Assembly (NCBI GenBank): GCA_002779075.1
Contig: PEXK01000013.1
Location: forward strand, 1-11,638
Direction: 5' to 3'
DNA length: 11,638 nt
DNA from: Candidatus Diapherotrites archaeon CG08_land_8_20_14_0_20_30_16
Lineage (GTDB): Archaea; Iainarchaeota; Iainarchaeia; Iainarchaeales; 0-14-0-20-30-16
Part shown: in pieces, positions 1 through 11,638 of the stretch
Layout of the letters: each line of letters begins with the position of its first letter
Position numbering within the stretch: position 1 is the stretch's first letter
The notes under the pieces: model-generated
What the model saw: the letters and a program-made list of their open reading frames with translations, nothing else
Databases searched by the model: none
What the model was told of the DNA's origin: nothing
Program-made: the position numbers and the translations under genes

Positions 1-41
1 AGAAATTATACAGCAGTTCCATAAATATAAAAGGGATATTT

Positions 42-3000
42 ATGACCTTTAAGGATTTGTATTATGCACAAGAGGAACATTTTAATAAAGTAATTGATTC
101 AATAGATTCTCGAATTTCTGTAAGATGGTTTTTCAATGCAATAGACAAAGTAATTCCTTCTTTTATTTTTGTTAATCTTCTTCTTTTAGTAGTTATTCTT
201 GTGCTGGTCTGGTTTTTTGTTATTCCACATATGCAAGAGGTTACTTTTATTTTCAAATCAGACAACATCCAATTAGTGGAGACCTTTAACTTCACGATAA
301 GTGTTGATGGTAAAGAATATGCTGGATTAGCAGAGCAAGGACAATCTCTTTTGGAAATTAAAAAAGGAGACAAAATAAGCATAGACTCTGTTGATTTGAA
401 GGACTACAACATTTCACAAAAAATATATGACTTTAAAGATCAAATTATAATAAATCTGGTTAAAGAAAAGTCTTTATTACCTGTTTCTTTTTACCTTTTT
501 AATTATGATGGAACAAATTTTGACAAACCTACAAATATCAGCTTTGCGTGTAGTTCTGGGTTCTCAGGGCAAAAAACAACATCTTCAAATACTTTTTATA
601 TTGATGTGCCTGATGATTGTGGCAATTTAAGTATAAATGCTCAATCTGATGGCTACAATTTGACAAAGGGCAATGAATGTGATAGTTCAGCATGTTCTTT
701 AGAATTTAGTCCAATTACAAATGTAAATAATGGAAAAATAAGTATTCCTAATGGTGGTATTAAAGTATCTGTTTTTAATGATCTAGGAGATCCTTTGTCA
801 GGTGTTAAAGTAAAAATTTATGAATCAAATAATTTACAAGACGAAATAGATGTTTCTATTACAAATCAATTGGGTTTAACAAAAATATTTTCTGGTCTTT
901 CTGTTGGCAAGTATTCAGTTTATGTCTCTTATTCTGATAATAATTATTTGGATAATTGCCAGGATACTTTTGTTAATGAAAATAGTGTCTCAGAAGTTAC
1001 AGTGAAGTTAAGCAAAATGTCTTTAGGCAAAATAAAATTAGTTTTTTTGGATGAAAATAACCTTCCATTAAAAGGTAGTTTGATATTAAAAAACAATTTA
1101 GGGGCTGTTTTATTTAGAACTCCACAATTTGATGGGGAATACAATCTGCCAGTTTATTCCTATGGGTTGTTTTATTTGGATTTCAAACCAGATGACCCAA
1201 TATTATTTCCTCTAGGAAATTACAAATTAGACATTGATTCTTCTTTAACAACAAAAACAATTGTTGTAAAAAAAGCAAGTGTTTTTAATAGTGCAAAACT
1301 AGTAATAAAAGTAATTGATGAAGATAATAATCCAGTAACTAATGGGCGGGTCTTTGTTCAAGATGCTGTAACAGAATTTGATTTATTGTCTTATGTTGTG
1401 CCAGAAACAGATTCTAATGGCAATGCTTGGGTTTTGCTACCTGAAGGTGCATATAGATTGAGAGTTTTCAATGGTTTCAGTGAGGCATTTAGTGGTACTG
1501 TTACTGTCTTTCCAAGTACCTCTGGTGAAACACCACAAATAAATTTAACAATAAACATGATGTTTGGTTATTCTCTGCTTAAATTGCAAATAAGAGACGA
1601 GTTTGGAATTCCATCTCCTAATACACAGGTCTTTTTCTTCAAAAAACCTAAAACAGATGCAGGAACAAAACTAACAAATGCCTTAGGACTAGTTAATCAT
1701 TCTTTCAAAGCCGGCACCCCCTTATACTATGTTGTTAAAGCAGATAATTATCTGCCTTATTTTAGTGAAGCGAAACTATTAATGACAAATATGCTGTGGG
1801 ATGTTAATTTGGAGTTAACACCAATAAAACTTGGCACTCCTAAAGTTGAGTTTTTAGGAATGTATGATTCTTTAGGTGGTAATGAAGAAAAGGCTATGTC
1901 TATAGGTGGTACATATTATTTAGGATTCAGAATATATATTTATGAAAAACCAGATGATACATTTGATTTTACAATAACAGCAGGAAAAAATAATACATTA
2001 GAGCAGGAAAAAGTTTATTTTAATGATGTTTTTTCATCAGCAAATACAGACACGAAACTTTTTAGCACAGACCCTGATTCTTTGTCATTAGGAGATGCAA
2101 AAACAATAATTTCTAATTGGAAAACCCCAACACAAGGTATATACGATGTTTATTATAGAGTGCAAGTGAGAAATGATTCATCAGTTCATTTGTATGATCC
2201 TTTGTCCTTTAATTGGGAGTTAAAAATTGATGATGATTTGAAAATAAGTGAAACAAAAGATTTTTTGGCAGGAACAAAAAGTGTTTGTGCCCAGGACGAA
2301 ATTTGCGGAAGATACACTTTGCTAGATAAAACAAATGAGCTCTATGTTGATGCTGTTGCAGAAGACAATTTTGAGGTAGTTCCTGGTCATACATATGAAT
2401 TGGAGTTTGATTTGATAAATGGAATTGATGGTTCAGAAGGAGAAATAAAAAATGGCTCTTTACAGATTTATAATGCATTAGCCCCAAATGAATCTGTAGA
2501 TGTAGTAAAGAACAATATTTCTACAAGATCATTTTTGCAGGTCTTTAATTATAATTTGTCAGGACCATCAAATGAAATGCATAAAGAAAATAGTGGAAAT
2601 TTCTTTGGTGTATTTGAAGAAGCATATAATTTTACTGAACTTACAAAAAACAAATATGTTTCCGGCAAGCTCACACTAAAACCAATAAGTGGCCGGTCTT
2701 ATTTGAATTTTGTTGTAATAGATTCTGACAAAAAAGTTATTGTCCAAAAAAAACCAGCATTATCTTTGCTTTTTGATGTTGTTTCTTCAAAAAAATTGAA
2801 AGTAACATTATTCCCAGACAGAGTTTTGGCACCTGAAACAACACAGAACTTGAAAATAGCAGTTAGTGATGATTCAAATTCTTTTGTAAAAGACGCATTT
2901 GTTTCTGTGCGATTAAAAAAGCCGACAGATAATAAGTATAGAATTTTAGATGATTGTGGCGGTGTAAATGAATTAAAAACAGATCCTTTGGGAATTACTG

Positions 3001-6000
3001 AATGCGAATTGAAAGCACAGGATCTGCCTGCAGGAACATATGTGCAGGTTTTGGTTGAGAAAGAAGGTTATGAAGGCTACTCCCAGAAAGATTTTACACC
3101 TGATTTACAGGTGAGCAATAAAATATTTGAATTTGATAAAGAATTTTTAAGTACCAATTTAATTTATCCTATTCAGCCAGAAGGATATGATGATTTAACA
3201 ATAACAAATAACACTGCAAAAGATATTACAATTGACCACCTGGAATTAATTGTTAACAACTATTCACAAGATGCTTTGGGATATTTAAATTTGTTAGAAA
3301 TGCAGAATTATATTTCTCAAATATATAATGGAAAAATAATTTTGGGAAGACAAATGAATTATGATGAGCAAAGTGTTTTGTCAGGTGAAGCTAAATCATA
3401 TTTAAAGAATTTCTTTAAAGCAGCATTAAATGAGCAGACTGCAAAAGAAATTGAGAAAGACACAAAAGCAGGGGGCTTTGTAAAAATATTTTTCAAAACA
3501 GAAGCAAAGCCTTTAGAAAGAATAATTCCTTTTAGTGTTAACATTGTGAGCGATGGTTATCCAACAAATAGTAGTGATTGCTTAATAATTGGTTTTCCAA
3601 GCGATATAACAAGTTTTGCATCTGACGGTTCAAAACCAATTAATATCCCTGTTATTGTACAAAATAGTTGCATAATACAGACTCAAAACAACTCCACAGT
3701 AACAGTCCTACCTGTAACTTTAGATTCTGCATTTATTGTTATTAATCATGAAAAAGGAGCACTTGGTCTGGGCTCATATTCTTTCAGTTTGAACACGGGG
3801 GAATATACAGATTTGAAATTTTCAGTGCCAAAAGCATTTGCAACTAATTGGCAATCTCAAGAATCAGAGCAACTTGCAAATATATCTTTTATGCCTAGAG
3901 GCGTAATGGGGAAAGAAACCTTGAATATAAAATTAATAGGCACTATTCAAACATCACAGGGAATGAAAAAAGTGGAGTCAAAAGAATTGAAATTTGATGT
4001 GTCTGTTTTGAATATTGAGGATTGTATAAAAGTTTTAAATGATAAAGGAAATGAATTTGATTATTTAAATTTAGAGCCAAAAGAATTTTCTATTGATACT
4101 ACATCAATAAACCCTTTGCAACAAGCACAGAAATTTGATATAACAATAAAAAATATTTGTGAAGGCATTCCTTTGGATATAAGGATTTGCAGAGATAATA
4201 CAAATAACATCCCAAAAAGTTGTGGTGAAGATCTTCTACAAAAAGGTTTTGTTGGTTTTAGTTTTGTAGGATTGGGCGAGAAACAACAATACTTTGAAAA
4301 GAAAGCAATAACTGGAGACAATACAAAAGTAGAGATATCAAGGCCAGAAATTTCTGGTGCTTATGCATTGGAAATTTATTCAAAGCAGCCAAAAGACATG
4401 TCATACAAAAGGATTAAATTCCTGCCTGTTAATGTTCAGACAAGTTTTTCAAATTCTCTTTTTATGTTAAATCCTTTTTTGGAAACCCACACAACATCGG
4501 CTAATCATGGGATTTTGGAAAGCGATGTAATGCGTGTATATAATTTGAATGTTCCTGGGCCATTGAAAATAACAGACAGAAACACATTTATCAGGATTTT
4601 GAAATTAGAATCTTCATCGGATATTAAAATAGGCAGCGCTGCAGATGCTGCTAGTGAATTAGATATGGCTAGTGGCCGATTAACTGAGACTATAATTGGT
4701 AGCGCTTCAGGTGCAGTATCTACTGTTTTGATTAGTGTTCTTATTGCAGTTACATTATCAGCTACAGCTACTGGTTGGGTCATAGGTGGCGCGGTTGTTG
4801 CTGCTGTTCTTGCTGTTGTTATGCTGGTTTTGTCTTCAATATCAAACATATCTGATTATCAAACTAGGGAATATGTTTTAATCAAAGATAAAGATGAACC
4901 TTATTTTGATCATAACAATTCTAATCCAAATATTGACCTGGAGGATCTCACCTATGCTTCGCTTTTTAAAGTCACAGGTCAAGATCATTATGAGTTTAAT
5001 ATAGTTCGAGAGGATGCTGATGGATCTGTTGGAATGACATCAACAACTTGGACTGATAGATTAAACTTTGAAGTTGGTTGTTCATCTAGTGATTATGAAT
5101 TAGACAAAGAAAATATTTTGTATTTAAGCAAAGGCGATCCAAAAACAAATTTTGATGATTGTTGGTGGGCTTCAGAACCAACAATAAGTGGAAATAAAGT
5201 TACTTTCCATCCTGCTTGTGGCGGTTCATCTTATGTTGATGTTGAATTGGAAACATATGTTGTTGTTCCTTGCAAGCTGAAGTCTGAACTTTGGGGAAGA
5301 GCAAATCAAGGGGGAATTATTGGGGGGTATCCAAACACAGGAATCTTTAATCTGCAATTCACAGACATCAACTTTGCAAAATTTTATGACGATAAGACAA
5401 AATGTGATTCTGAATGGTGTTTCAAAACCTTTCCTTTAAATATAAGCAATGTAATATTAGGAAGCACACAAAGTAATTTGAGAGTTGCTTATCATAATTT
5501 AAAACCGCAGGAAATAACAATAAATCAAAGTGGTTTTGAATGCACAGATGTTCTAGGAAATGTAATTGGTTTTACTGGTGAAAAAGCAAAACCTAAAATT
5601 AGTTTTGATTGGAGCTATGATGATATTAATAATGAGTTTTGTGAATCCGATGTTAATGGAGATGTGAAACAATATTGTGATTCAACCCAGTTTAGTATTT
5701 CACTTTTGAAACACCTGCAAAGTGCACAGGAAAAATTAAACACTTTAGGGTCACCTACTTGCCCATATATGAATCCATTTTTTAATATAAAACCAGAAGT
5801 ATCTACACAGAAAGAGTTTTTCAATGATGTTTTAATAACAAAAAATGCAGATCAAACAAAATTGTATTTGCAGGCTACAAAAATTTATGATACTGAATTA
5901 AATGCACAGGCACCTAATAACAAAACATATCTGGTTGTTGGTAACGCTAGTCCAAAAGAAATGAAAGCAGAGATTATAAGCACAGAAATAATGTTGAATG

Positions 6001-7403
6001 GTATACTTAAAAAGAGATGGAAACAGCTCTTTACATACGAGCTCTTGACTTTGCCAAATCCTGCAGATTTAGATCCTGGCAAGCAAACAATATACAATCA
6101 ATCTGTGAACCTTTTGTTTTACGGTTGCGATTCAAATGCACAGAACTGCAAGAATACAGAAATAGTGCCAACAAGTATTGTTGTTACTGCAACAAACTGG
6201 AAAGGTGGCTGTGTTGTTGAAAACCCATCAACAAAAATTTTGACAGATGGCAGAATGCTTTTATTTAAATTCTTTAAAGGTGTTGATGAAAACAAATTAT
6301 TTGAAATACAGGATATTTTGCATTACAAAGCATATTTGACTGATGATGGTTTTTCACAAGACTTTCTGAATGATCTTTACAATTATTCTCAGAAAAATAC
6401 TTTCCTGAATGAATTATCAAACTTAATTGATGATTTTAATATTAGTGAAAAATCTCCCATAGGCCAGTTTAAAATAATCAATGATTTACAGGAACCTAAA
6501 ACAATGGGTCCTGGATTATATGAAGTGCATGTAAATCTGGTTTTCCCAAAAGACAGTGTTGAGATAAAAGATGCGAATATTGAAATTGTTTTGAACAAAA
6601 TCAAACACGCAACAAATGATAATGTTTTTTATTACCTGCCTATTGATGGAAGAGTGGGTATTGATAACTCGAATATAGAAAGACAAGGTTATGGTGTTGA
6701 TTTTAGTGGGGATAACATAACAATAGACACAGATATTCTAGGGGAGCAGTTAATTACAAATCTGGGCAGTAACTCGACACCTAAGTCACACCTAGAAATT
6801 AATAAATCTGTGGGATTCTCTAAAATGAATGGGCTAAACAGAGGAACAATATTTGAAGCAAAAAGAACAGAATCTGGGCCTGTAAATAATATATCTTTGT
6901 CTTTTGTACCTAAGTTGCAATATTGGACATTGAACTATAATATGAAAAATATAAACAAAGACCAAGAATCCGGTATATACTATTCATTAATCTACAATAA
7001 CAATTTCCAGTTGCAAGAAAATTCAATACTTCCATGGTTCGCAAAAGATCAAAATAAAACAGATTTTACTGGCCAGAAACTCTTTGATACCTACCAAAAA
7101 GTATCAATAAGGGATGATGTTGATAATACTGTTTCTAAAATTGTTTATGATGCTACAAGTGTAACTGATATTGCAGATTATAATATTTATGCAAGAGTAT
7201 TTGGTATTGAAGGTGCAAGCTTGTATGTGAAAATAACAAAACTCCAAAACCTCATGAAAAAAAAAATAATTGTGGGGGTGCCAGAAAAATTGAATATTGA
7301 AACTATTGCACAAGTGATTGAAGCTATATCTTCAGGGAAGCTGTGCATTTCAAAATCAGCAAATAGTTTGTATACCAGAGTGTTTGTAAAAGAAAACAAG
7401 TAG
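42..7403 (+). CDS. Giant (2453 aa) membrane-anchored multi-beta-sandwich surface protein; putative adhesin/envelope protein, no catalytic domain recognised
   Basis: A 7362-nt ORF with no stop in an AT-rich, stop-prone background; ATG at 42, TAG at 7401-7403. Every ORF overlapping it is under 115 aa. The same frame is also open from window position 3 to 42, so a start upstream of the window cannot be excluded. Hallmark motifs read in the translation: ETDSNGNAWVLLPEGAYRLRVF (T-D-x-x-G...LP-x-G-x-Y, typical of CarboxypepD_reg-like domains) and VQVLVEKEGYEGYSQKDF (PEGA-like). Confidence 0.9.
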   Translation: MTFKDLYYAQEEHFNKVIDSIDSRISVRWFFNAIDKVIPSFIFVNLLLLVVILVLVWFFVIPHMQEVTFIFKSDNIQLVETFNFTISVDGKEYAGLAEQGQSLLEIKKGDKISIDSVDLKDYNISQKIYDFKDQIIINLVKEKSLLPVSFYLFNYDGTNFDKPTNISFACSSGFSGQKTTSSNTFYIDVPDDCGNLSINAQSDGYNLTKGNECDSSACSLEFSPITNVNNGKISIPNGGIKVSVFNDLGDPLSGVKVKIYESNNLQDEIDVSITNQLGLTKIFSGLSVGKYSVYVSYSDNNYLDNCQDTFVNENSVSEVTVKLSKMSLGKIKLVFLDENNLPLKGSLILKNNLGAVLFRTPQFDGEYNLPVYSYGLFYLDFKPDDPILFPLGNYKLDIDSSLTTKTIVVKKASVFNSAKLVIKVIDEDNNPVTNGRVFVQDAVTEFDLLSYVVPETDSNGNAWVLLPEGAYRLRVFNGFSEAFSGTVTVFPSTSGETPQINLTINMMFGYSLLKLQIRDEFGIPSPNTQVFFFKKPKTDAGTKLTNALGLVNHSFKAGTPLYYVVKADNYLPYFSEAKLLMTNMLWDVNLELTPIKLGTPKVEFLGMYDSLGGNEEKAMSIGGTYYLGFRIYIYEKPDDTFDFTITAGKNNTLEQEKVYFNDVFSSANTDTKLFSTDPDSLSLGDAKTIISNWKTPTQGIYDVYYRVQVRNDSSVHLYDPLSFNWELKIDDDLKISETKDFLAGTKSVCAQDEICGRYTLLDKTNELYVDAVAEDNFEVVPGHTYELEFDLINGIDGSEGEIKNGSLQIYNALAPNESVDVVKNNISTRSFLQVFNYNLSGPSNEMHKENSGNFFGVFEEAYNFTELTKNKYVSGKLTLKPISGRSYLNFVVIDSDKKVIVQKKPALSLLFDVVSSKKLKVTLFPDRVLAPETTQNLKIAVSDDSNSFVKDAFVSVRLKKPTDNKYRILDDCGGVNELKTDPLGITECELKAQDLPAGTYVQVLVEKEGYEGYSQKDFTPDLQVSNKIFEFDKEFLSTNLIYPIQPEGYDDLTITNNTAKDITIDHLELIVNNYSQDALGYLNLLEMQNYISQIYNGKIILGRQMNYDEQSVLSGEAKSYLKNFFKAALNEQTAKEIEKDTKAGGFVKIFFKTEAKPLERIIPFSVNIVSDGYPTNSSDCLIIGFPSDITSFASDGSKPINIPVIVQNSCIIQTQNNSTVTVLPVTLDSAFIVINHEKGALGLGSYSFSLNTGEYTDLKFSVPKAFATNWQSQESEQLANISFMPRGVMGKETLNIKLIGTIQTSQGMKKVESKELKFDVSVLNIEDCIKVLNDKGNEFDYLNLEPKEFSIDTTSINPLQQAQKFDITIKNICEGIPLDIRICRDNTNNIPKSCGEDLLQKGFVGFSFVGLGEKQQYFEKKAITGDNTKVEISRPEISGAYALEIYSKQPKDMSYKRIKFLPVNVQTSFSNSLFMLNPFLETHTTSANHGILESDVMRVYNLNVPGPLKITDRNTFIRILKLESSSDIKIGSAADAASELDMASGRLTETIIGSASGAVSTVLISVLIAVTLSATATGWVIGGAVVAAVLAVVMLVLSSISNISDYQTREYVLIKDKDEPYFDHNNSNPNIDLEDLTYASLFKVTGQDHYEFNIVREDADGSVGMTSTTWTDRLNFEVGCSSSDYELDKENILYLSKGDPKTNFDDCWWASEPTISGNKVTFHPACGGSSYVDVELETYVVVPCKLKSELWGRANQGGIIGGYPNTGIFNLQFTDINFAKFYDDKTKCDSEWCFKTFPLNISNVILGSTQSNLRVAYHNLKPQEITINQSGFECTDVLGNVIGFTGEKAKPKISFDWSYDDINNEFCESDVNGDVKQYCDSTQFSISLLKHLQSAQEKLNTLGSPTCPYMNPFFNIKPEVSTQKEFFNDVLITKNADQTKLYLQATKIYDTELNAQAPNNKTYLVVGNASPKEMKAEIISTEIMLNGILKKRWKQLFTYELLTLPNPADLDPGKQTIYNQSVNLLFYGCDSNAQNCKNTEIVPTSIVVTATNWKGGCVVENPSTKILTDGRMLLFKFFKGVDENKLFEIQDILHYKAYLTDDGFSQDFLNDLYNYSQKNTFLNELSNLIDDFNISEKSPIGQFKIINDLQEPKTMGPGLYEVHVNLVFPKDSVEIKDANIEIVLNKIKHATNDNVFYYLPIDGRVGIDNSNIERQGYGVDFSGDNITIDTDILGEQLITNLGSNSTPKSHLEINKSVGFSKMNGLNRGTIFEAKRTESGPVNNISLSFVPKLQYWTLNYNMKNINKDQESGIYYSLIYNNNFQLQENSILPWFAKDQNKTDFTGQKLFDTYQKVSIRDDVDNTVSKIVYDATSVTDIADYNIYARVFGIEGASLYVKITKLQNLMKKKIIVGVPEKLNIETIAQVIEAISSGKLCISKSANSLYTRVFVKENK
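153..227 (+). other. N-terminal transmembrane signal-anchor of gene 1 (aa 38-62)
   Basis: An uninterrupted hydrophobic run, IPSFIFVNLLLLVVILVLVWFFVIP, preceded by a 37-aa polar/charged tail. No obvious signal-peptidase A-x-A site follows it. Confidence 0.8.
756..1826 (+). repeat. Four tandem ~85-aa CarboxypepD_reg-like beta-sandwich modules (protein-level repeat, aa 239-595)
   Basis: Each unit opens with an alternating hydrophobic strand followed by an acidic/Pro turn: IKVSVFNDLGDPLSGVKVKIY, IKLVFLDENNLPLKGSLILK, LVIKVIDEDNNPVTNGRVFVQD, LKLQIRDEFGIPSPNTQVFFF. Unit 3 carries TDSNG...LPEGAYRLRV. Unit boundaries are approximate, and I saw no long DNA-level identity between units. Confidence 0.7.
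2790..3113 (+). other. PEGA / CarboxypepD_reg-like beta-sandwich module (aa 917-1024)
   Basis: KKLKVTLFPD...FVSVRLKKPTDNKYRILDDCGGVNELKTDPLGITECELKAQDLPAGTYVQVLVEKEGYEGYSQKDF. It shows the T-D-x-x-G...LP-x-G-x-Y...K-x-G-Y pattern. Confidence 0.55.
4692..4841 (+). other. Internal hydrophobic hairpin: two predicted TM spans (aa 1551-1574 and 1579-1600) in the middle of gene 1
   Basis: IIGSASGAVSTVLISVLIAVTLSA-TATG-WVIGGAVVAAVLAVVMLVLSSI. This is 50 residues with no charged side chain, rich in Ala/Gly/Ser/Thr/Val, split by a short TATG turn. The local DNA is visibly more GC-rich (GCT/GTT/GGT codons) than its flanks. Confidence 0.8.
4842..7403 (+). other. Cys-rich distal region of gene 1 (aa 1601-2453), no family recognised
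   Basis: It contains 14 Cys, 13 of them between aa 1680 and 2057 (nt 5079-6212). Several lie in close pairs: CDSEWC, CDSNAQNC, CESDVNGDVKQYC. I could not recognise any catalytic or known domain signature. Confidence 0.5.
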
Positions 7404-7446
7404 CAAAAAAGCTGAAAAGGTAAAAAAACATAAAAAGGAAGATATA

Positions 7447-7454
7447 TTTATATT
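7447..7454 (+). promoter_or_regulatory. TATA-box-like octamer TTTATATT upstream of the ORF6N gene
   Basis: It matches the archaeal TATA consensus (about TTTAWATA). Its 3' end lies 26 nt before the ATG at 7481, which would put a TSS within a few nt of the start codon (a leaderless-type mRNA). This rests on sequence pattern only. Confidence 0.4.
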
Positions 7455-7480
7455 GACGAGAAATTTTTTAGTGTGATAGT

Positions 7481-8143
7481 ATGAATAAAAATGCATTATT
7501 GTTAAGCACAGATAAAATCAAAAACCGGATTTATACTCTTCGAAATCTGCAAGTAATGTTAGATTCTGATTTGGCAATATTATACAATGTTCTTACTAAA
7601 AATTTAAATAAGGCCGTAAAAAGAAATATTGATAGATTCCCAGAACAGTTTATGTTCCAATTAAATAACCAAGAATTTGAAGACTTGAAGTTCCAATTTG
7701 GAACATCAAGTTGGGGGGGCACAAGAAAATTACCCTTTGCTTTTACAGAGCAAGGCGTAGCTATGCTTTCAGGGGTATTAAAAAGTGAAACTGCTGTAAA
7801 AGTTAGCATACAGATAATGGATGCATTTGTTTCTATGAGAAAATTTATTAACTCAAATGCGTTGATTTTCCAAAGATTAGATAAAGTAGAAATTAAACAA
7901 TTAGAACATGATAGAAAGTTTAATGAAATATTTGATGCAATACAAAGCAAGGATATTAAGCCAGAAAAAGGAATATTTTTTGATGGCCAAATTTTTGATG
8001 CCTATAAGTTTGTTTCTGATTTAATTAAAACTTCAAAAAAATCTATAATTTTAATAGATAATTATATTGATGATTCTGTTTTAACACTATTTAGTAAAAG
8101 AAATAAAAATGTGAAAGTAACAATATACACAAAAACCATTTAA
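7481..8143 (+). CDS. ORF6N domain protein (KilA-N-related putative DNA-binding protein), apparently C-terminally truncated
   Basis: The translation carries the ORF6N signature: IYTLRNLQVMLDSDLAILYNV...LNKAVKRNIDRFPEQFMFQL...TSSWGGTRKLPFAFTEQGVAMLSGVLKSETAVKVSIQIMDAFV. A coiled-coil-like LDKVEIKQLEHDRKFNEIFDAI follows, then the start of a second conserved module, GIFFDGQIFDAYKFVSDLIKTSKKSIILIDNYIDDSVLTLFSKR. The ORF ends at TAA 8141-8143, with a second in-frame TAA four codons later. Confidence 0.9.
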   Translation: MNKNALLLSTDKIKNRIYTLRNLQVMLDSDLAILYNVLTKNLNKAVKRNIDRFPEQFMFQLNNQEFEDLKFQFGTSSWGGTRKLPFAFTEQGVAMLSGVLKSETAVKVSIQIMDAFVSMRKFINSNALIFQRLDKVEIKQLEHDRKFNEIFDAIQSKDIKPEKGIFFDGQIFDAYKFVSDLIKTSKKSIILIDNYIDDSVLTLFSKRNKNVKVTIYTKTI

Positions 8144-8245
8144 GTTATTAAATAAGTTGGGATTGAAATGATAAATAAAGTAAAATTTAAGGAATTTGAA
8201 AAAATTTAGTCTAAAAAAAGTAGTTATGAGATACAAATCAATAAA

Positions 8246-8253
8246 TTTATATT
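8246..8253 (+). promoter_or_regulatory. Second copy of the TTTATATT TATA-like octamer, upstream of gene 3
   Basis: This is the same octamer as at 7447-7454 (the 9-mer ATTTATATT is shared). Its 3' end lies 32 nt before the ATG at 8286. The TSS it predicts would fall in or just after the SD-like element, so the two calls are partly in conflict. Confidence 0.3.
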
Positions 8254-8273
8254 AAGAAAAGGGTATATAGATT

Positions 8274-8280
8274 AGGAGTG
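8274..8280 (+). promoter_or_regulatory. Shine-Dalgarno-like AGGAGTG upstream of gene 3
   Basis: AGGAGTGA is complementary to the conserved 16S 3' tail (SD consensus GGAGGTGA, one G missing). GGAG ends 7 nt before the ATG at 8286. Confidence 0.5.
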
Positions 8281-8285
8281 AAATT

Positions 8286-11200
8286 ATGGAAGATAACATA
8301 AATTTAGATCAACAAAATATAGATATCCGAGAACCCACCAAAAATAAAGAACTAACTCTTAAAGATGGTTGGTATAAAAAATTGTCAGAGAAATATTATG
8401 CATTAGTTGATAAATTGCATTTGAGGGCAATAACAAATCCCCTTGACAAATTGTTTCCATCTATGTTTTTCTTTTTGATTTTGTTTTTAGTAATAATATT
8501 TGTTATAGTTTATTTTTCTGCATTTCACACTTCATTAAGCACTTATACTTTGCAGTTAACTGTTAATGGGGTGGCTTTGGACAAAACCTATTCAATTGTA
8601 TTGACTAGTACAGATAATGAAATAAATATTTTGGGCAAGACAAAAGATATTTCAGGAGTTGTGACGTTTGAATCCAAACAAAATATTAGTGTTAACGCCA
8701 AGATAAATATAGCTGGGTTTGAACCAATACAAAAACAATTCAAAACAGACAAAGAAAAGATAATTTTGGATTTAACACTTAAAGAAATTGAAGAACAAAA
8801 GTTAGAATCAAAGAAAAACATTTTTTCTTTTGCATTTTTCAATAAATTAGGTGCGTTAAATAAGAATGGGAACATCAAATTGAACTGTGACACTTATTCA
8901 CAGGAATTTCCTGTTGAAAACGGAATATTAGACAATATCGAAATCCCATGTACTGTTGTAAATGTTAATGCAACTGTTGATGGCTTACCAAATGTAAATC
9001 AAAACTGTAGCCCTATGTTATGTAAATTGATGTTTAGTGACACAATTTCCAACACTGAAATTAAAACAGAACAGATCCTGCCTAAAAATATATTGCTGGT
9101 TTATGTTACTTTCAAAGATGGAAATATTGCTAAAGGCATGACTGTTGAAGTTAGAAGAGATTCAGAAGGGCAGGAATTAATAGATTCTGATAAAACTAAA
9201 GATTTCGGATCTTATAAGATAGGTCTTATTTCAGGGATGTATTTAGTTATTATTTCAGATCCTTCTGGGAAATATGCATCGCAACAGCAAAAAGTAGAAA
9301 TACATGCTGGAAACCAAGAACCCCTATACTTTGTTTTAGATACTCCAGCAATAGGCGCGATAAATGTTAATTTCAATGTTGAAGACACAGCTATTTTAAT
9401 GGGCGTTTTGTATTTCAAAGACGTAAACAATAATATTTTAGAAACAAAACCTTTTGATACGAATCAACCTGTACAATTCCTAATAAAGGTTAAGGGGCAG
9501 TATAATTTGTCAGCATCTTTGAATACAGATTATGTTAATGATTATGTTTCAGAAGATGTTTCTACAGAGTATAACCAAGAGAGTGGCAATTTTGATGTTA
9601 ATTATCTAATAAGAAAAATAAATATTTTCACTGACCAGAATGTTGTTGTTCAGGTTATAGATTCAACAAATCAAAAACCAATTCCTTTTGCAAAAATCTT
9701 TTTCAGAGATTCACTGAACAATAATGCTTTTTTAACTTCTGTAGGGTTTGTAAATACAGATTCTAATGGTGTTTATTATAGAATACTGCCAAAAGGAAAT
9801 TATAGTGTAAATTTGAAACATGCACGTTTATCTGGCACACAGCTGTTTTCTGTTGATGAAACAAAATCACTCACATTAACTTCTAAGAATGTTTTGTTGA
9901 AAGTGGAATGGGGAAATACGCAAATCAATTTGTGTCTGTTTGATAATAAAAAGAAAGAACTTTATGATGCTTTTGTTGAAGTGTATAGCCAAGAGAGAGG
10001 CGGAGAAAACACTTTCTATATTACTAAAGAAAATAATTGTGCAATCACAACTGTAAAGAATTTAGAGAATATTTATTTGCATATTACAAAACCAGAATAT
10101 TACGAGCAGTATACCCAGACAATATTTTTGGATGGTGAAACAAAAATAATACCTGTATCAATTTATTTAACACCAACAATTGCAAATGGCCAGCAGAATT
10201 TTGAAAGCTCTTTTGCAGGAATTTTTGATGATGCTTTGTTGAAACAAGCCACAAAGAAACTAGATATCGATAAAGATTATTATTATGCTTTTAAAGTCAA
10301 AATTCCCAAATTCAAGGCATTAACTGAGAAACTTGTGAAATTTTATGGTGTTGCAGGAGATTTAAAAGATGAAAACTTTGATAAATCTAAGATGTTAACA
10401 TTTTGGGTATCTTCTTTAGGCAATGCTAAGTTATATAATGAATTTGATACAAAAAACATTTTGGCAAAGGATGTTCCTGTTTTAGAAATGGGCGAGGATT
10501 TTAAATTCGGGGCAAAGAGTTTTATTTTAGATTATCCTTTTCCAAAAGACAGTGAATCAGATGTTGAGATTTTGTTTGTTGTTTTAAATCATATTACAAA
10601 GTATGTTGATGTTAGTAAATCAGAAGGGGATCCAATAATTTTTAATTATTGGTTTGGCTTAGAATCAAACCCTGCACAGCAAAAAGATTTCAAAAAGGTA
10701 ATAAGGTATCCGGGCACACAAATGTGTGAAGAACCAATTTGTTTAGATGCTTATTTGAATGGTTCTCCTGTTAATGGTCCACAGGTTTCATCTCAAGGCT
10801 ATTTGTTTGCAAAGCTTTTCTTTGACAATGATGACAAGAATATTTCAATATACAACACATCAGAACAGGAGAAAGTGAAATCTTTAAATGATTTGAAAGA
10901 TTTGTATCTCTCATTTGATATTCCTGAGATTAACAAATTTAATCTTCACACAGTTGAGGGGGACATAACAACTGATGCTTTAGAATTAGGTCCTGTTTAT
11001 CTACCTAATGTAGAGATATCAAAAGTAAATTACCTGGATTTTAATGTTCATTATTCTTTATTGAACCCAAAAAACAGTAATATAATATTTAGAGCATTCA
11101 AAGATAATTTTTCAGATTCAAATTTTGAATTAGCATTGCAATTGATTGCTTATGAAAAAGGATATTTAACTGTAGACATATTGCCTGAAGAATATATTGT

Positions 11201-11638
11201 TCCTTTTGTTACAAATCCTGTTACTGTGAAAATATATGATGACAAGGGGATTCCTTGTATAAATGCAGAAGTAAGATATTATTCATATGAATCTGGAAAT
11301 TGGGTTTTGCAAGACAGTTATTTAACAAATCCCAATGGCGAAACTAATTTTGAAACTAGTCCAATAAGTATTGGTGACAAAATAAAAATTGTTGTGCTTA
11401 AAGAGGGTTTTGCACCATTTGAGAAAGAATTTAATGCAGATTTTGGTTTTTTTAAAGTCCCACCAAAACTAACTGCAAAGGTTACTTATCCTAAAGATGC
11501 AAACCCAGTTAATAAGGAAGTGGAGATAGAGAATAAATCTGGTTTGGGAATAAAGATTTTTAATTTAAAATACAGTTTAGCAAATACAAGCAAAGTATCT
11601 CCAGATGTGTTTAATCAATTAATTATTACAGAGAAGAT
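8286..11638 (+). CDS. 5' part (at least 1117 codons) of a second giant membrane-anchored beta-sandwich surface protein, paralog of gene 1; runs off the 3' end of the window
   Basis: It is not in the supplied ORF track because it has no stop codon. I read every codon in the frame where nt mod 3 = 0, from 8286 to 11636, and found no TAA, TAG or TGA. The nearest upstream in-frame stop is TAG 8268-8270, and 8286 is the first ATG after it. The translation begins MEDNINLDQQNIDIREPTKNKELTLKDGWYKKLSEKYYALVDKLHLRAITNPLDKLFPSMFFFLILFLVIIFVIVYFSAF. Its module order matches gene 1. Confidence 0.85.
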   Translation, partial: MEDNINLDQQNIDIREPTKNKELTLKDGWYKKLSEKYYALVDKLHLRAITNPLDKLFPSMFFFLILFLVIIFVIVYFSAFHTSLSTYTLQLTVNGVALDKTYSIVLTSTDNEINILGKTKDISGVVTFESKQNISVNAKINIAGFEPIQKQFKTDKEKIILDLTLKEIEEQKLESKKNIFSFAFFNKLGALNKNGNIKLNCDTYSQEFPVENGILDNIEIPCTVVNVNATVDGLPNVNQNCSPMLCKLMFSDTISNTEIKTEQILPKNILLVYVTFKDGNIAKGMTVEVRRDSEGQELIDSDKTKDFGSYKIGLISGMYLVIISDPSGKYASQQQKVEIHAGNQEPLYFVLDTPAIGAINVNFNVEDTAILMGVLYFKDVNNNILETKPFDTNQPVQFLIKVKGQYNLSASLNTDYVNDYVSEDVSTEYNQESGNFDVNYLIRKINIFTDQNVVVQVIDSTNQKPIPFAKIFFRDSLNNNAFLTSVGFVNTDSNGVYYRILPKGNYSVNLKHARLSGTQLFSVDETKSLTLTSKNVLLKVEWGNTQINLCLFDNKKKELYDAFVEVYSQERGGENTFYITKENNCAITTVKNLENIYLHITKPEYYEQYTQTIFLDGETKIIPVSIYLTPTIANGQQNFESSFAGIFDDALLKQATKKLDIDKDYYYAFKVKIPKFKALTEKLVKFYGVAGDLKDENFDKSKMLTFWVSSLGNAKLYNEFDTKNILAKDVPVLEMGEDFKFGAKSFILDYPFPKDSESDVEILFVVLNHITKYVDVSKSEGDPIIFNYWFGLESNPAQQKDFKKVIRYPGTQMCEEPICLDAYLNGSPVNGPQVSSQGYLFAKLFFDNDDKNISIYNTSEQEKVKSLNDLKDLYLSFDIPEINKFNLHTVEGDITTDALELGPVYLPNVEISKVNYLDFNVHYSLLNPKNSNIIFRAFKDNFSDSNFELALQLIAYEKGYLTVDILPEEYIVPFVTNPVTVKIYDDKGIPCINAEVRYYSYESGNWVLQDSYLTNPNGETNFETSPISIGDKIKIVVLKEGFAPFEKEFNADFGFFKVPPKLTAKVTYPKDANPVNKEVEIENKSGLGIKIFNLKYSLANTSKVSPDVFNQLIITEK
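8454..8525 (+). other. N-terminal transmembrane signal-anchor of gene 3 (aa 57-80)
   Basis: FPSMFFFLILFLVIIFVIVYFSAF is an uninterrupted hydrophobic run after a 56-aa polar tail. It sits in the same position, relative to the D-K-[VL]-[IF]-P-S motif, as the anchor of gene 1. Confidence 0.8.
9090..10175 (+). repeat. Four tandem CarboxypepD_reg-like beta-sandwich modules in gene 3 (protein-level repeat, aa 269-630)
   Basis: Units open with ILLVYVTFKDGNIAKGMTVEVRR, INVNFNVEDTAILMGVLYFKD, VVVQVIDSTNQKPIPFAKIFFRD and VLLKVEWGNTQINLCLFDNKKKELYDAFVEVYS. Unit 3 carries NTDSNGVYYRILPKGNYSVNLK. The array ends in ...VSIYLTP, as the gene 1 array ends in ...VNLELTP. Confidence 0.65.
11208..11444 (+). other. 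PEGA / CarboxypepD_reg-like module in gene 3
   Basis: VTNPVTVKIYDDKGIPCINAEVRYYSYESGNWVLQDSYLTNPNGETNFETSPISIGDKIKIVVLKEGFAPFEKEF. It is collinear with gene 1 at 2790-3113 (VQVLVEKEGYEGYSQKDF). Confidence 0.55.

Follow-up and report, generated by a model that had tools for sequence, protein, structure and literature searches.

Tandem colossal membrane proteins of an Iainarchaeota archaeon are anciently diverged paralogs and candidate subunits of a heteromeric envelope assembly

Introduction

What do two giant membrane-anchored surface proteins, encoded almost side by side, do for an archaeon with a small genome, and do they act together or apart? The question is raised by an 11,638-nucleotide (nt) stretch of DNA (the window, here always the whole stretch) on contig PEXK01000013.1 of Candidatus Diapherotrites archaeon CG08_land_8_20_14_0_20_30_16. 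The host is a tiny DPANN archaeon from groundwater and belongs to Candidatus (Ca.) Diapherotrites, a phylum now named Iainarchaeota. The open reading frame (ORF) listing shows three genes on the plus strand, two encoding the giant proteins (genes 1 and 3) and a small one between them (gene 2). An initial annotation, made from the letters of the window, had described genes 1 and 3 as an old and maintained duplication and had suggested either a heteromeric surface structure or two host or ligand specificities. None of the envelope or surface-layer (S-layer) proteins of DPANN archaea has been determined experimentally, and candidates only have been proposed (bioRxiv 10.1101/2023.10.27.564410). 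The analysis below compares the two genes with each other, with their relatives across the phylum and with known surface proteins. The window corresponds to positions 2521-14158 of a parent locus (L001, 1 mismatch), which is itself positions 7570-25023 of a 25-kb ENA metagenome contig.

Results

Genes 1 and 3 are collinear paralogs of ancient divergence

BLASTP aligned residues 1-741 of gene 1 with residues 23-802 of gene 3 (85.5 bits, E 3e-20, 23% identity, 813 columns). For gene 1 and the part of gene 3 within the window, the Smith-Waterman score is 334, compared with 63 +/- 7 for full shuffles (z 37) and 65 +/- 8 for shuffles of 30-residue blocks (z 32), and z is still 26 without the tail and the transmembrane (TM) helix. 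The distal window part (gene 1 741-1250 vs. gene 3 801-1117) is marginal as a single pair, with a z of 3.0 and 1.4% of the shuffles reaching the score. Therefore, profiles were built for the two groups, gene 1 with four orthologues and gene 3 with six, and compared with hhalign. The profiles aligned with a probability of 100% and an E-value of 1.2e-48 over 1972 collinear columns (gene 1 3-2442 vs. gene 3 26-2216). The column confidence is good over residues 1-1500, about 2100-2200 and the last 50 residues of gene 1, and near zero over residues 1500-2050; collinearity is lost in a variable cassette at about 1500-2050. Thus, the same module order over the comparable length, as the initial annotation had proposed, is borne out by the profile alignment and the shuffled controls that it had asked for, the Smith-Waterman score being clearly above the shuffles. 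Every motif pair on which the proposal had relied falls in aligned columns, including a strand of the I-x-N-x-S type, and the N-terminal motif of gene 3 has a mean column confidence of 7 on a scale of 0-9.

No likeness between the two genes was detected at the DNA level: blastn gave nothing significant and the longest exact word in common is 14 nt, in agreement with the earlier remark that long identical nucleotide runs are lacking. The duplication is therefore old. The two proteins share 19-24% identity, yet are collinear from end to end, and each has its own conserved set of orthologues. Those of gene 1 are 42-49% identical over the full length, and pairwise identities within this group ('family A') are ~50%, evenly spread, with almost no indels. 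Those of gene 3 ('family B') are 31-40% identical, the complete ones being 2098-2430 amino acids (aa) long. Genes 1 and 3 are confirmed as anciently diverged collinear paralogs, of which both copies have been maintained.

Gene 1 is 100% identical to a database entry (P0001), a hypothetical protein of Ca. Diapherotrites archaeon CG08_land_8_20_14_0_20. Gene 3 does not stop just past the window, since the parent contig extends it to at least 2216 aa (L001 10806-17453), ~10 residues short of the end of the complete orthologues. Its start at the ATG at 8286 is preceded by a Shine-Dalgarno-like AGGAGTG site and is backed by an orthologue (P0012). The window part of gene 3 stops before the C-terminal domain, and the continuation on the parent contig matches the hidden Markov model of this domain.

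A colossal protein family of the Iainarchaeota

A family profile was built from residues 1440-2453 of gene 1 and homologues and used for an exhaustive HMMER search, with counts given as representatives of 50%-identity clusters. The profile matches 722 representatives at E <= 1e-3 and 465 at E <= 1e-30. Word-indexed protein searches had given 8, 5 and 30 matches, the last set being mostly unrelated CarboxypepD_reg repeat proteins; the tiny family that they implied is overturned by the exhaustive search. Two gene 3 orthologues (P0009 and P0013) match the profile with E-values of 1e-134 to 1e-136.

The full-length members are nearly all 2100-3250 aa long with the profile match at the extreme C-terminus, and 88 of the 98 listed members of at least 1500 aa fall between 2000 and 2800 aa. 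They share one build: an N-terminal motif and one TM helix, a beta-sandwich stalk of ~1450-1500 aa and a C-terminal domain of ~630 aa. Most start with YYxLEDKYYxxLDKIDxKIPVYKIIDPIDKVVPSF directly followed by the TM helix, and genes 1 and 3 carry divergent versions of this motif. In 12 mainstream members, the D, P, S and F of 'IDKVVPSF' never vary.

When one genome per GTDB species was scanned with the motifs PID[KR][VIY][VF]PSF and [VIH]YCD[AP]TQF, 280 stretches were found to encode a family relative. Almost all contigs shown have titles with Ca. Iainarchaeum, Diapherotrites or 'archaeon', and the family is present in the complete genomes AR10 (two loci) and CP064981 and in Ca. Iainarchaeum andersonii. 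Judged by these searches, the family is specific to one phylum, the Iainarchaeota, and phylum-wide. Contigs labelled Thaumarchaeota or Chloroflexi/Chloroflexota (L029, L032, L041 and L046) and one labelled Micrarchaeota (P0152) encode typical family genes, yet probably are mis-binned or mislabelled Iainarchaeota. The database names of members are 'hypothetical protein' or 'carboxypeptidase regulatory-like domain-containing protein' only, and no earlier description of the family was found in the literature on Diapherotrites/Iainarchaeota.

Arrays combine hairpin-bearing and hairpin-less paralogs

Gene 1 has an internal hydrophobic hairpin of two helices joined by a 2-residue turn, with a Kyte-Doolittle hydrophobicity of up to 2.78 and apparent insertion free energies (dGapp, Hessa scale) of +0.43 for the first helix and -2.3 for the second. 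Its composition is kept in the family A orthologues, some of which are less hydrophobic there. No second hydrophobic segment was found in gene 3 or any of its orthologues, and the N-terminal TM helix is the sole membrane-insertable window in the entire 2216 aa. Extension of gene 3, suggested earlier as a way of seeing whether it shares the hairpin, thus gave a negative answer. Nor did a search of all hydrophobic windows reveal a C-terminal TM-like segment, the most C-terminal one being the gene 1 hairpin (1558-1597). The two proteins had been called 'tail-anchored'; the anchor is instead an N-terminal signal-anchor, making them type II membrane proteins. Direct reading of the gene 1 sequence shows no obvious small-residue cleavage site after the helix.

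The part between the stalk and the C-terminal domain is variable, because gene 1 has the hairpin there and gene 3 does not. The Cys-rich cassette that follows the hairpin in gene 1 has a low AlphaFold pLDDT (predicted local distance difference test), and other members have different content at this place. In one distant member (P0007), residues about 1590-1800 at the cassette position contain a DxSGS segment with a weak likeness to vWA (Pfam E 0.018); at this E-value a vWA domain is a hint only.

Among the fetched loci, internal hydrophobicity is bimodal, with a subset of genes having a hydrophobic segment of 50-70 aa. The segment sits at a constant distance of 850-880 aa from the C-terminus (873 aa in gene 1). 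In mainstream members, it consists of a weakly hydrophobic G/A-rich part and one strongly hydrophobic helix, flanked by conserved Cys residues (C.W ... DPC); the flanking Cys are missing in the clade of gene 1. Of the same loci, 23 carry at least two long family genes in the same orientation, and exactly one hairpin-bearing paralog is present in 16 of these. The hairpin-bearing gene is usually the last of the array and is the first in the clade of the window. Arrays in species-representative genomes consist of two to four same-strand paralogs, usually with exactly one hairpin-bearing, and the recurrent combination is one hairpin-bearing together with one or two hairpin-less. Solitary family genes are also present, at second loci.

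The co-occurrence of the two genes as neighbours, which the initial annotation had proposed to check, holds in relatives. Family A is followed by family B after 6-24 nt in L005/L006, L008 and the contig of P0012, and the two are parted by one inserted gene in the window and in L009. More distant arrays have three giants (L010) or two (L011). A shorter third or fourth paralog follows the giant pair in L005 (17348-20476), L008 (19762-23040) and L052 (24715-29421). Its length ranges from 1092 to at least 1569 aa (1092-1539 aa in L005 and L008); it comprises the N-terminal TM helix plus the first modules of the stalk but not the C-terminal domain, and in L008 it also carries the motif. The contig of the window ends short of the position where it would follow.

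The array pattern appears to fit a heteromeric surface structure better than two ligand specificities, because the same-strand arrays of two to four paralogs show a recurrent division into hairpin-bearing and hairpin-less members. We tentatively read genes 1 and 3 as subunits of a heteromeric, membrane-anchored, S-layer-like 'pillar and canopy' assembly specific to the Iainarchaeota, a reading to which we give slightly less than an even chance. In such an assembly, the region past the TM helix would be extracellular, and its ~1450 aa of transthyretin/immunoglobulin (Ig)-like beta-sandwich modules would form a stalk or pillar. The variable cassette and the Cys-containing C-terminal domain (~630 aa) would form the distal interacting part, a canopy or head. 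The paralogs of one array would be expressed and assembled together. The subunit with the hairpin, here gene 1, would dip its Gly/Ala-rich helical hairpin into the membrane of its own cell as a second anchor point, and the conserved cytoplasmic motif would tie the assembly to a conserved factor, either one for insertion or a cytoplasmic one.

The same segment could serve in a different way. As an internal fusion loop or pore-forming hairpin at the tip of a heteromeric stalk, it would enter the membrane of a partner cell and make a site of fusion or transfer, which we regard as very unlikely. Its composition resembles that of viral fusion peptides (G/A-rich, 50-70 aa, marginally membrane-spanning), and its place at the stalk-head junction would be distal if all C-terminal domains lie at the tip. 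Disulfide-clamped internal fusion loops are Cys-flanked, as is the segment of the mainstream members with its conserved Cys. However, these Cys are absent in the clade of gene 1, whose pair of hydrophobic helices, carrying GxxxG motifs and joined by a 2-residue turn, has the look of an ordinary TM hairpin. Neither a fusogen-like fold nor a heptad-repeat or class II fusion architecture was detected, and Foldseek searches of PDB and BFVD were null. Foldseek of the C-terminal model found no fusogen ectodomain fold (viral class I-III, fusexins), the hairpin region itself being poorly modelled. In its fullest form, the array would encode a heteromeric stalk that measures tens of nanometres and is built of two to four colossal paralogs, with cytoplasmic motifs coupling it to the cell interior and a disulfide-clamped, fusion-peptide-like loop entering the membrane of another cell; the chance of this is slim. 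If true, the Iainarchaeota would possess machinery devoted to membrane contact or transfer between cells, which would imply that they live as episymbionts, and a hairpin acting on foreign membranes would bear on the DPANN-host connection.

In one sublineage (L018-L025), three adjacent ORFs replace the giant protein (e.g. L020 741-4487, 4474-6213 and 6216-9464). The first (~1250 aa) comprises the motif, TM helix and stalk; the middle one (~580 aa) is unrelated to the family and combines a signal peptide of its own with a C-terminal TM helix; and the third (1083-1150 aa) has its own signal peptide and the family C-terminal domain. Since ORFs of the middle type occur in 16 loci, the layout is not a sequencing error. 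Two-part splits of a similar kind are found in L026, L027, L029, L041, L045, L060, L063, L067 and L082. On this gene layout, the anchor-stalk and C-terminal parts can act as separate, associating polypeptides, because the sublineage encodes them in separate neighbouring genes, and the C-terminal part and the product of the unrelated middle gene each have their own signal peptide. A fission exactly at the hairpin was ruled out as the origin of the three-ORF lineage, as the middle ORF is unlike the family and the C-terminal ORF is nearest to solitary hairpin-less paralogs.

Stalk and C-terminal domain

The repeat unit of the stalk is ~90 aa in both proteins; the four repeats align with one another and each array ends in LTP. 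In gene 1, Pfam places SpaA at residues 249-320 and CarboxypepD_reg at 423-491, both slightly under the gathering score (for CarboxypepD_reg, PF13620, 30.1 bits vs. a cutoff of 32.3), and the window part of gene 3 has a CarbopepD_reg_2 match only (16.8 bits). The CarboxypepD_reg-like fold assignment is a safe prediction, because 11 of 13 family members match CarboxypepD_reg (best E 1.7e-33), and it is uninformative on function. PEGA is matched by two family members (best E 3.4e-9). C170, C193 and C749 are invariant among 13 homologues. The stalk family as a whole matches generic beta-sandwich families only (CarboxypepD_reg, SpaA, Big_1, SdrD_B, bMG3/MG4 and PEGA), and some members match the Pfam NOMO1-like family. 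Against PDB sequences, the mainstream stalk profile matches the rod-shaped spacer NOMO2 (9c7v_B, E 9e-7) and, weakly, the S-layer anchor SlaB (8qox_B, E 2e-4), and both matches count in favour of the S-layer-like reading.

The C-terminal domain carries the motifs GxTGxxAxP, YCDATQF-like, DxYSxDFxxDF and FYYLPxDG..RxGYG and a C-terminal Cys, and it has no match among PDB sequences. An AlphaFold2 model of gene 1 1794-2453 from a 34-sequence alignment (pLDDT 82.7, predicted TM-score 0.73) consists of beta-sandwiches and a helical bundle. Foldseek of this model against PDB and BFVD gave nothing convincing: the whole-model TM-scores are 0.16 or less, and the rest are small beta-sandwich sub-matches. 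The top match is poor, the pilus tip protein PitA with TM-scores of 0.12-0.15. A longer model (gene 1 1440-2453, 12 sequences) was discarded, because its pLDDT is 55, the hairpin and cassette are below 50, and the Foldseek matches from it are meaningless. After Pfam, NCBIfam and PDB profile searches, two AlphaFold models and Foldseek, the earlier statement that no domain explains the function still holds.

These searches bear on the possibility that each paralog is an independent long fibre, an adhesin or host-interaction spike whose distal cassette and C-terminal domain bind a different host or substrate ligand. We consider this rather unlikely. Consistent with it, the organism is a DPANN archaeon with a small genome, and giant surface proteins such as SPEARE have been implicated in DPANN host contact (PMC6642349). 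The cassette between the stalk and the C-terminal domain is variable and in one member includes the weak vWA-like DxSGS segment (E 0.018), and the stalk matches include the adhesin-type modules SpaA, SdrD_B and Big_1, with PitA as the top Foldseek match. However, the PitA scores are as low as given above, and Pfam/NCBIfam scans of gene 1, gene 3 and 25 homologues revealed no lectin, laminin-G or protease domain, nor any other recognised binding domain. Spikes of this kind are also hard to reconcile with the constant length, the even conservation and the lack of a hypervariable tip or repeat-number variation, and the paralog classes are kept across the phylum rather than turning over. We know of no host for the Iainarchaeota, which counts against both the spikes and a partner-cell membrane device. 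The conserved length, strict module order, even conservation, absence of DNA tandem repeats and conserved Cys would be the behaviour of a structural protein rather than that of an adhesin.

Points that weigh against an S-layer-like assembly

To our knowledge, no envelope or S-layer protein is known for the Iainarchaeota. Of the traits of the S-layer class, one TM helix with beta-sandwich modules is present, the extracellular placement being inferred. Several observations nevertheless speak against the S-layer-like assembly. The characterised archaeal S-layer proteins considered are held at their C-terminus or by a separate protein. The anchors typical of the class (a C-terminal TM helix with a basic tail, or a lipid or partner-protein anchor) are missing, as the anchor is N-terminal, and an N-terminal signal-anchor with a conserved cytoplasmic motif is without precedent among the proteins considered. 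A set of three or four separately anchored paralogs is unusual for an S-layer. There is no enrichment of N-glycosylation sequons (34 in gene 1 vs. 27.6 +/- 4.8 expected; 23 in gene 3 vs. 23.7). The SlaB and NOMO matches of the stalk are generic beta-sandwich similarity.

The second anchor point is open to doubt as well. The hydrophobicity of the hairpin is marginal in two gene 1 orthologues (P0002 and L009_A), and by dGapp only one of the two segments of mainstream members is clearly membrane-spanning. The C-terminal domain of gene 1 is closest to the hairpin-less 'second' paralogs; therefore, the hairpin may not be strictly orthologous across the phylum. BLAST comparison with the mainstream hairpin-bearing class left the placement of gene 1 ambiguous, with the N-terminal 1500 aa slightly nearer to hairpin-bearing members and the C-terminal domain nearer to hairpin-less ones.

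Gene 2 and the junction between the giant genes

Gene 2 matches Pfam ORF6N (E 5e-33, 113.7 bits vs. a cutoff of 27.8) and the PADLOC defence candidate PDC-S05 (E 3.4e-95). It is missing from the same junction in L005/L006 and L008, where the giants are 6-24 nt apart. Since the closest relatives lack it, gene 2 is, by this comparison, an insertion into an otherwise tight gene pair. The junction in L009 (8542-9939) holds a different defence-type gene with Schlafen/AlbA_2, HATPase_c_4 and HTH domains. The junction between the giants appears to be a hotspot at which small defence-type genes insert.

Defence-type genes at the junction suggest phage pressure at the locus, under which the paralogs might be redundant or alternatively expressed copies, interchangeable for instance in antigenic or phage-receptor variation and never used together. 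The tandem arrangement of surface proteins and the solitary family genes at second loci would also suit such copies. We give this little credence: the copies are only ~20% identical, each with conserved orthologues of its own, they lack the DNA similarity that recombination or gene conversion would need, and the pattern of one hairpin-bearing with one or two hairpin-less paralogs, spaced by 6-24 nt in the relatives, points to co-expression. In the window, gene 3 may have been expressed from its own signals since the insertion of gene 2, because it has its own TATA-like element and a strong AGGAGTG ribosome-binding site. As read from the sequence, AT-rich TATA-like elements lie upstream of gene 1 (ATAAATATAAAA, window 1-41) and of gene 3 (TTTATATT, 8144-8285).

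Layout of the window and neighbouring genes

The features of the window are collected in Table 1. The G+C content is 26-36%. Only short ORFs of 139 aa or less, nested within the giant genes, are present on the reverse strand, and scans of the window for tRNA genes, Rfam matches and tandem DNA repeats found none.

Table 1. Coordinates of genes and protein modules in the window
Feature	Position (nt)	Strand	Residues	Basis or remark
Gene 1	42..7403	+		2453 aa; giant type II membrane protein, hairpin-bearing paralog ('family A')
Gene 1 cytoplasmic N-terminal motif KDLYY..EEHF..IDKVIPSF	42..161	+	1-40	aligns to gene 3 and the family-wide motif
Gene 1 TM helix (signal-anchor)	162..218	+	41-59	Kyte-Doolittle 3.2; Hessa-scale dGapp -5.0
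Gene 1 four-Cys module	549..695	+	170-218	aligns with the four Cys of gene 3
Gene 1 four transthyretin/CarboxypepD_reg-like beta-sandwich repeats	747..1829	+	236-596	Pfam, self-alignment
Gene 1 close Cys pair CAQDEIC	2286..2306	+	749-755	aligns to gene 3 CEEPIC
Gene 1 PEGA-like beta-sandwich module	3012..3089	+	991-1016	Pfam PEGA E 0.014, weak
Gene 1 Gly/Ala/Ser/Thr-rich hydrophobic hairpin with GxxxG motifs	4689..4853	+	1550-1604	hydrophobicity
Gene 1 Cys-rich variable cassette	4854..5522	+	about 1605-1827	hhalign confidence vs. family B ~0
Gene 1 C-terminal domain	5523..7400	+	about 1828-2453	family-defining; HMMER profile
Gene 2	7481..8143	+		220 aa; ORF6N-domain protein, candidate defence gene
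Gene 3	8286..>11638	+		1117 codons in the window; giant type II membrane protein, hairpin-less paralog ('family B')
Gene 3 cytoplasmic region with motif KDGWY..SEKYY..LDKLFPSM	8286..8459	+	1-58	aligns to the gene 1 motif
Gene 3 TM helix	8460..8516	+	59-77	dGapp -5.5

MBL-fold, VTT/DedA and hicB-hicA genes are conserved upstream of the giant genes in L001 (87-2264), L005 and L008. The MBL-fold/RMMBL-like gene (~330 aa) is divergently transcribed and has weak Pfam matches only, VTT/DedA is a membrane protein and hicB-hicA a toxin-antitoxin pair. In ~10 loci (e.g. L037 8301-11339), genes for a Peptidase_A24 prepilin-peptidase-like protein and a radical SAM/SPASM protein lie directly downstream of a solitary hairpin-less paralog. 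Small conserved ORFs of 113-166 aa occur within or just after arrays, in 10-12 loci each (L010 9386-9859, L081 9491-9982, L038 19058-19438 and L080 24568-24903). They have no match in Pfam, and the one in L010 has four hydrophobic segments; these ORFs are possible accessory membrane subunits.

Discussion

The family takes up 15-25 kb per ~1 Mb genome, and its motifs PIDK[VI]VPSF and YCDATQF are a sequence marker for the phylum. If genes 1 and 3 are indeed subunits of a heteromeric assembly, the Iainarchaeota would have a multi-paralog archaeal envelope made from colossal subunits. The members are concrete targets for proteomics, antibodies and cryo-electron tomography of Iainarchaeota enrichments.

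Among DPANN archaea, the SPEARE proteins of Nanohaloarchaeota (PMC6642349) are likewise giant surface proteins; they account for a few percent of a small genome and have one TM helix anchor and a conserved intracellular part. However, they are 3,300-8,500 aa long and variable in length, and contain serine-protease, laminin-G, toxin-like and cytoplasmic restriction-endonuclease domains. No domains of these types were found in the Pfam/NCBIfam scans of gene 1, gene 3 and 25 homologues, and the cytoplasmic part of the family is only ~40-58 aa. Conserved motifs directly upstream of the export segment occur in the ESPR of autotransporters and in YSIRK-G/S, cleaved bacterial signal peptides of very large surface proteins. 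The family motif resembles them in standing directly before a hydrophobic export or anchor segment and in being specific to very large surface proteins, but it is unrelated in sequence and its segment is of TM length (~23 aa, dGapp ~-5) with no evident cleavage site.

Two structurally described proteins share features of the stalk. NOMO, a subunit of the BOS complex (9c7v_B) and the best PDB match of the stalk, is a rod of prealbumin-like beta-sandwich domains on one TM helix. It differs in being eukaryotic, ~1,250 aa long and located in the lumen of the endoplasmic reticulum with a C-terminal TM helix, and it has no N-terminal motif, hairpin or C-terminal domain of the family type. SlaA and SlaB of Sulfolobales (eLife 2024, PMC10903991; PDB 8QOX) resemble the pair in that two adjacent genes give a heteromeric envelope structure, as is proposed here for the family, and the beta-sandwich domains of SlaB are those matched weakly by the mainstream stalk profile. 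However, SlaA and SlaB are unrelated in sequence, and a TM helix is present in SlaB alone, at the C-terminus behind a coiled coil, whereas both partners of the family are paralogs with N-terminal anchors and are ~five times the size of SlaB.

The closest architectural analogue of the family is PySLP, a 292-kDa 'colossal' S-layer protein of Pyrobaculum arsenaticum with homologues in Thermoproteota (bioRxiv 10.64898/2026.08.21.746120). Both are of similar size (~2,700 aa for PySLP), with a long pillar of tandem Ig-like beta-sandwich domains rising from the membrane and one TM helix beside a short conserved cytoplasmic tail. In both, the distal region contains Cys and consists of non-canonical domains without a fold match; PySLP has there a Cys-rich lattice region and a crown that matches no known fold. 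No sequence relationship was detected, and the likeness is drawn from the description of PySLP only. The polarity is opposite: in PySLP, the signal peptide is cleaved, the lattice region is N-terminal and the TM helix with its basic tail is C-terminal, whereas the family has its acidic/aromatic cytoplasmic motif and TM helix at the N-terminus and its novel domain at the C-terminus. PySLP is a single homo-hexameric protein, whereas the family has two to four divergent paralogs per array, one of them with an internal hydrophobic hairpin. The conserved cytoplasmic N-terminal motif, an anchor opposite to that of the colossal S-layer protein, the hairpin split and a C-terminal fold without a convincing match set the family apart, and it appears to be an undescribed, phylum-wide group of colossal archaeal surface proteins of which the pair in the window is one instance.

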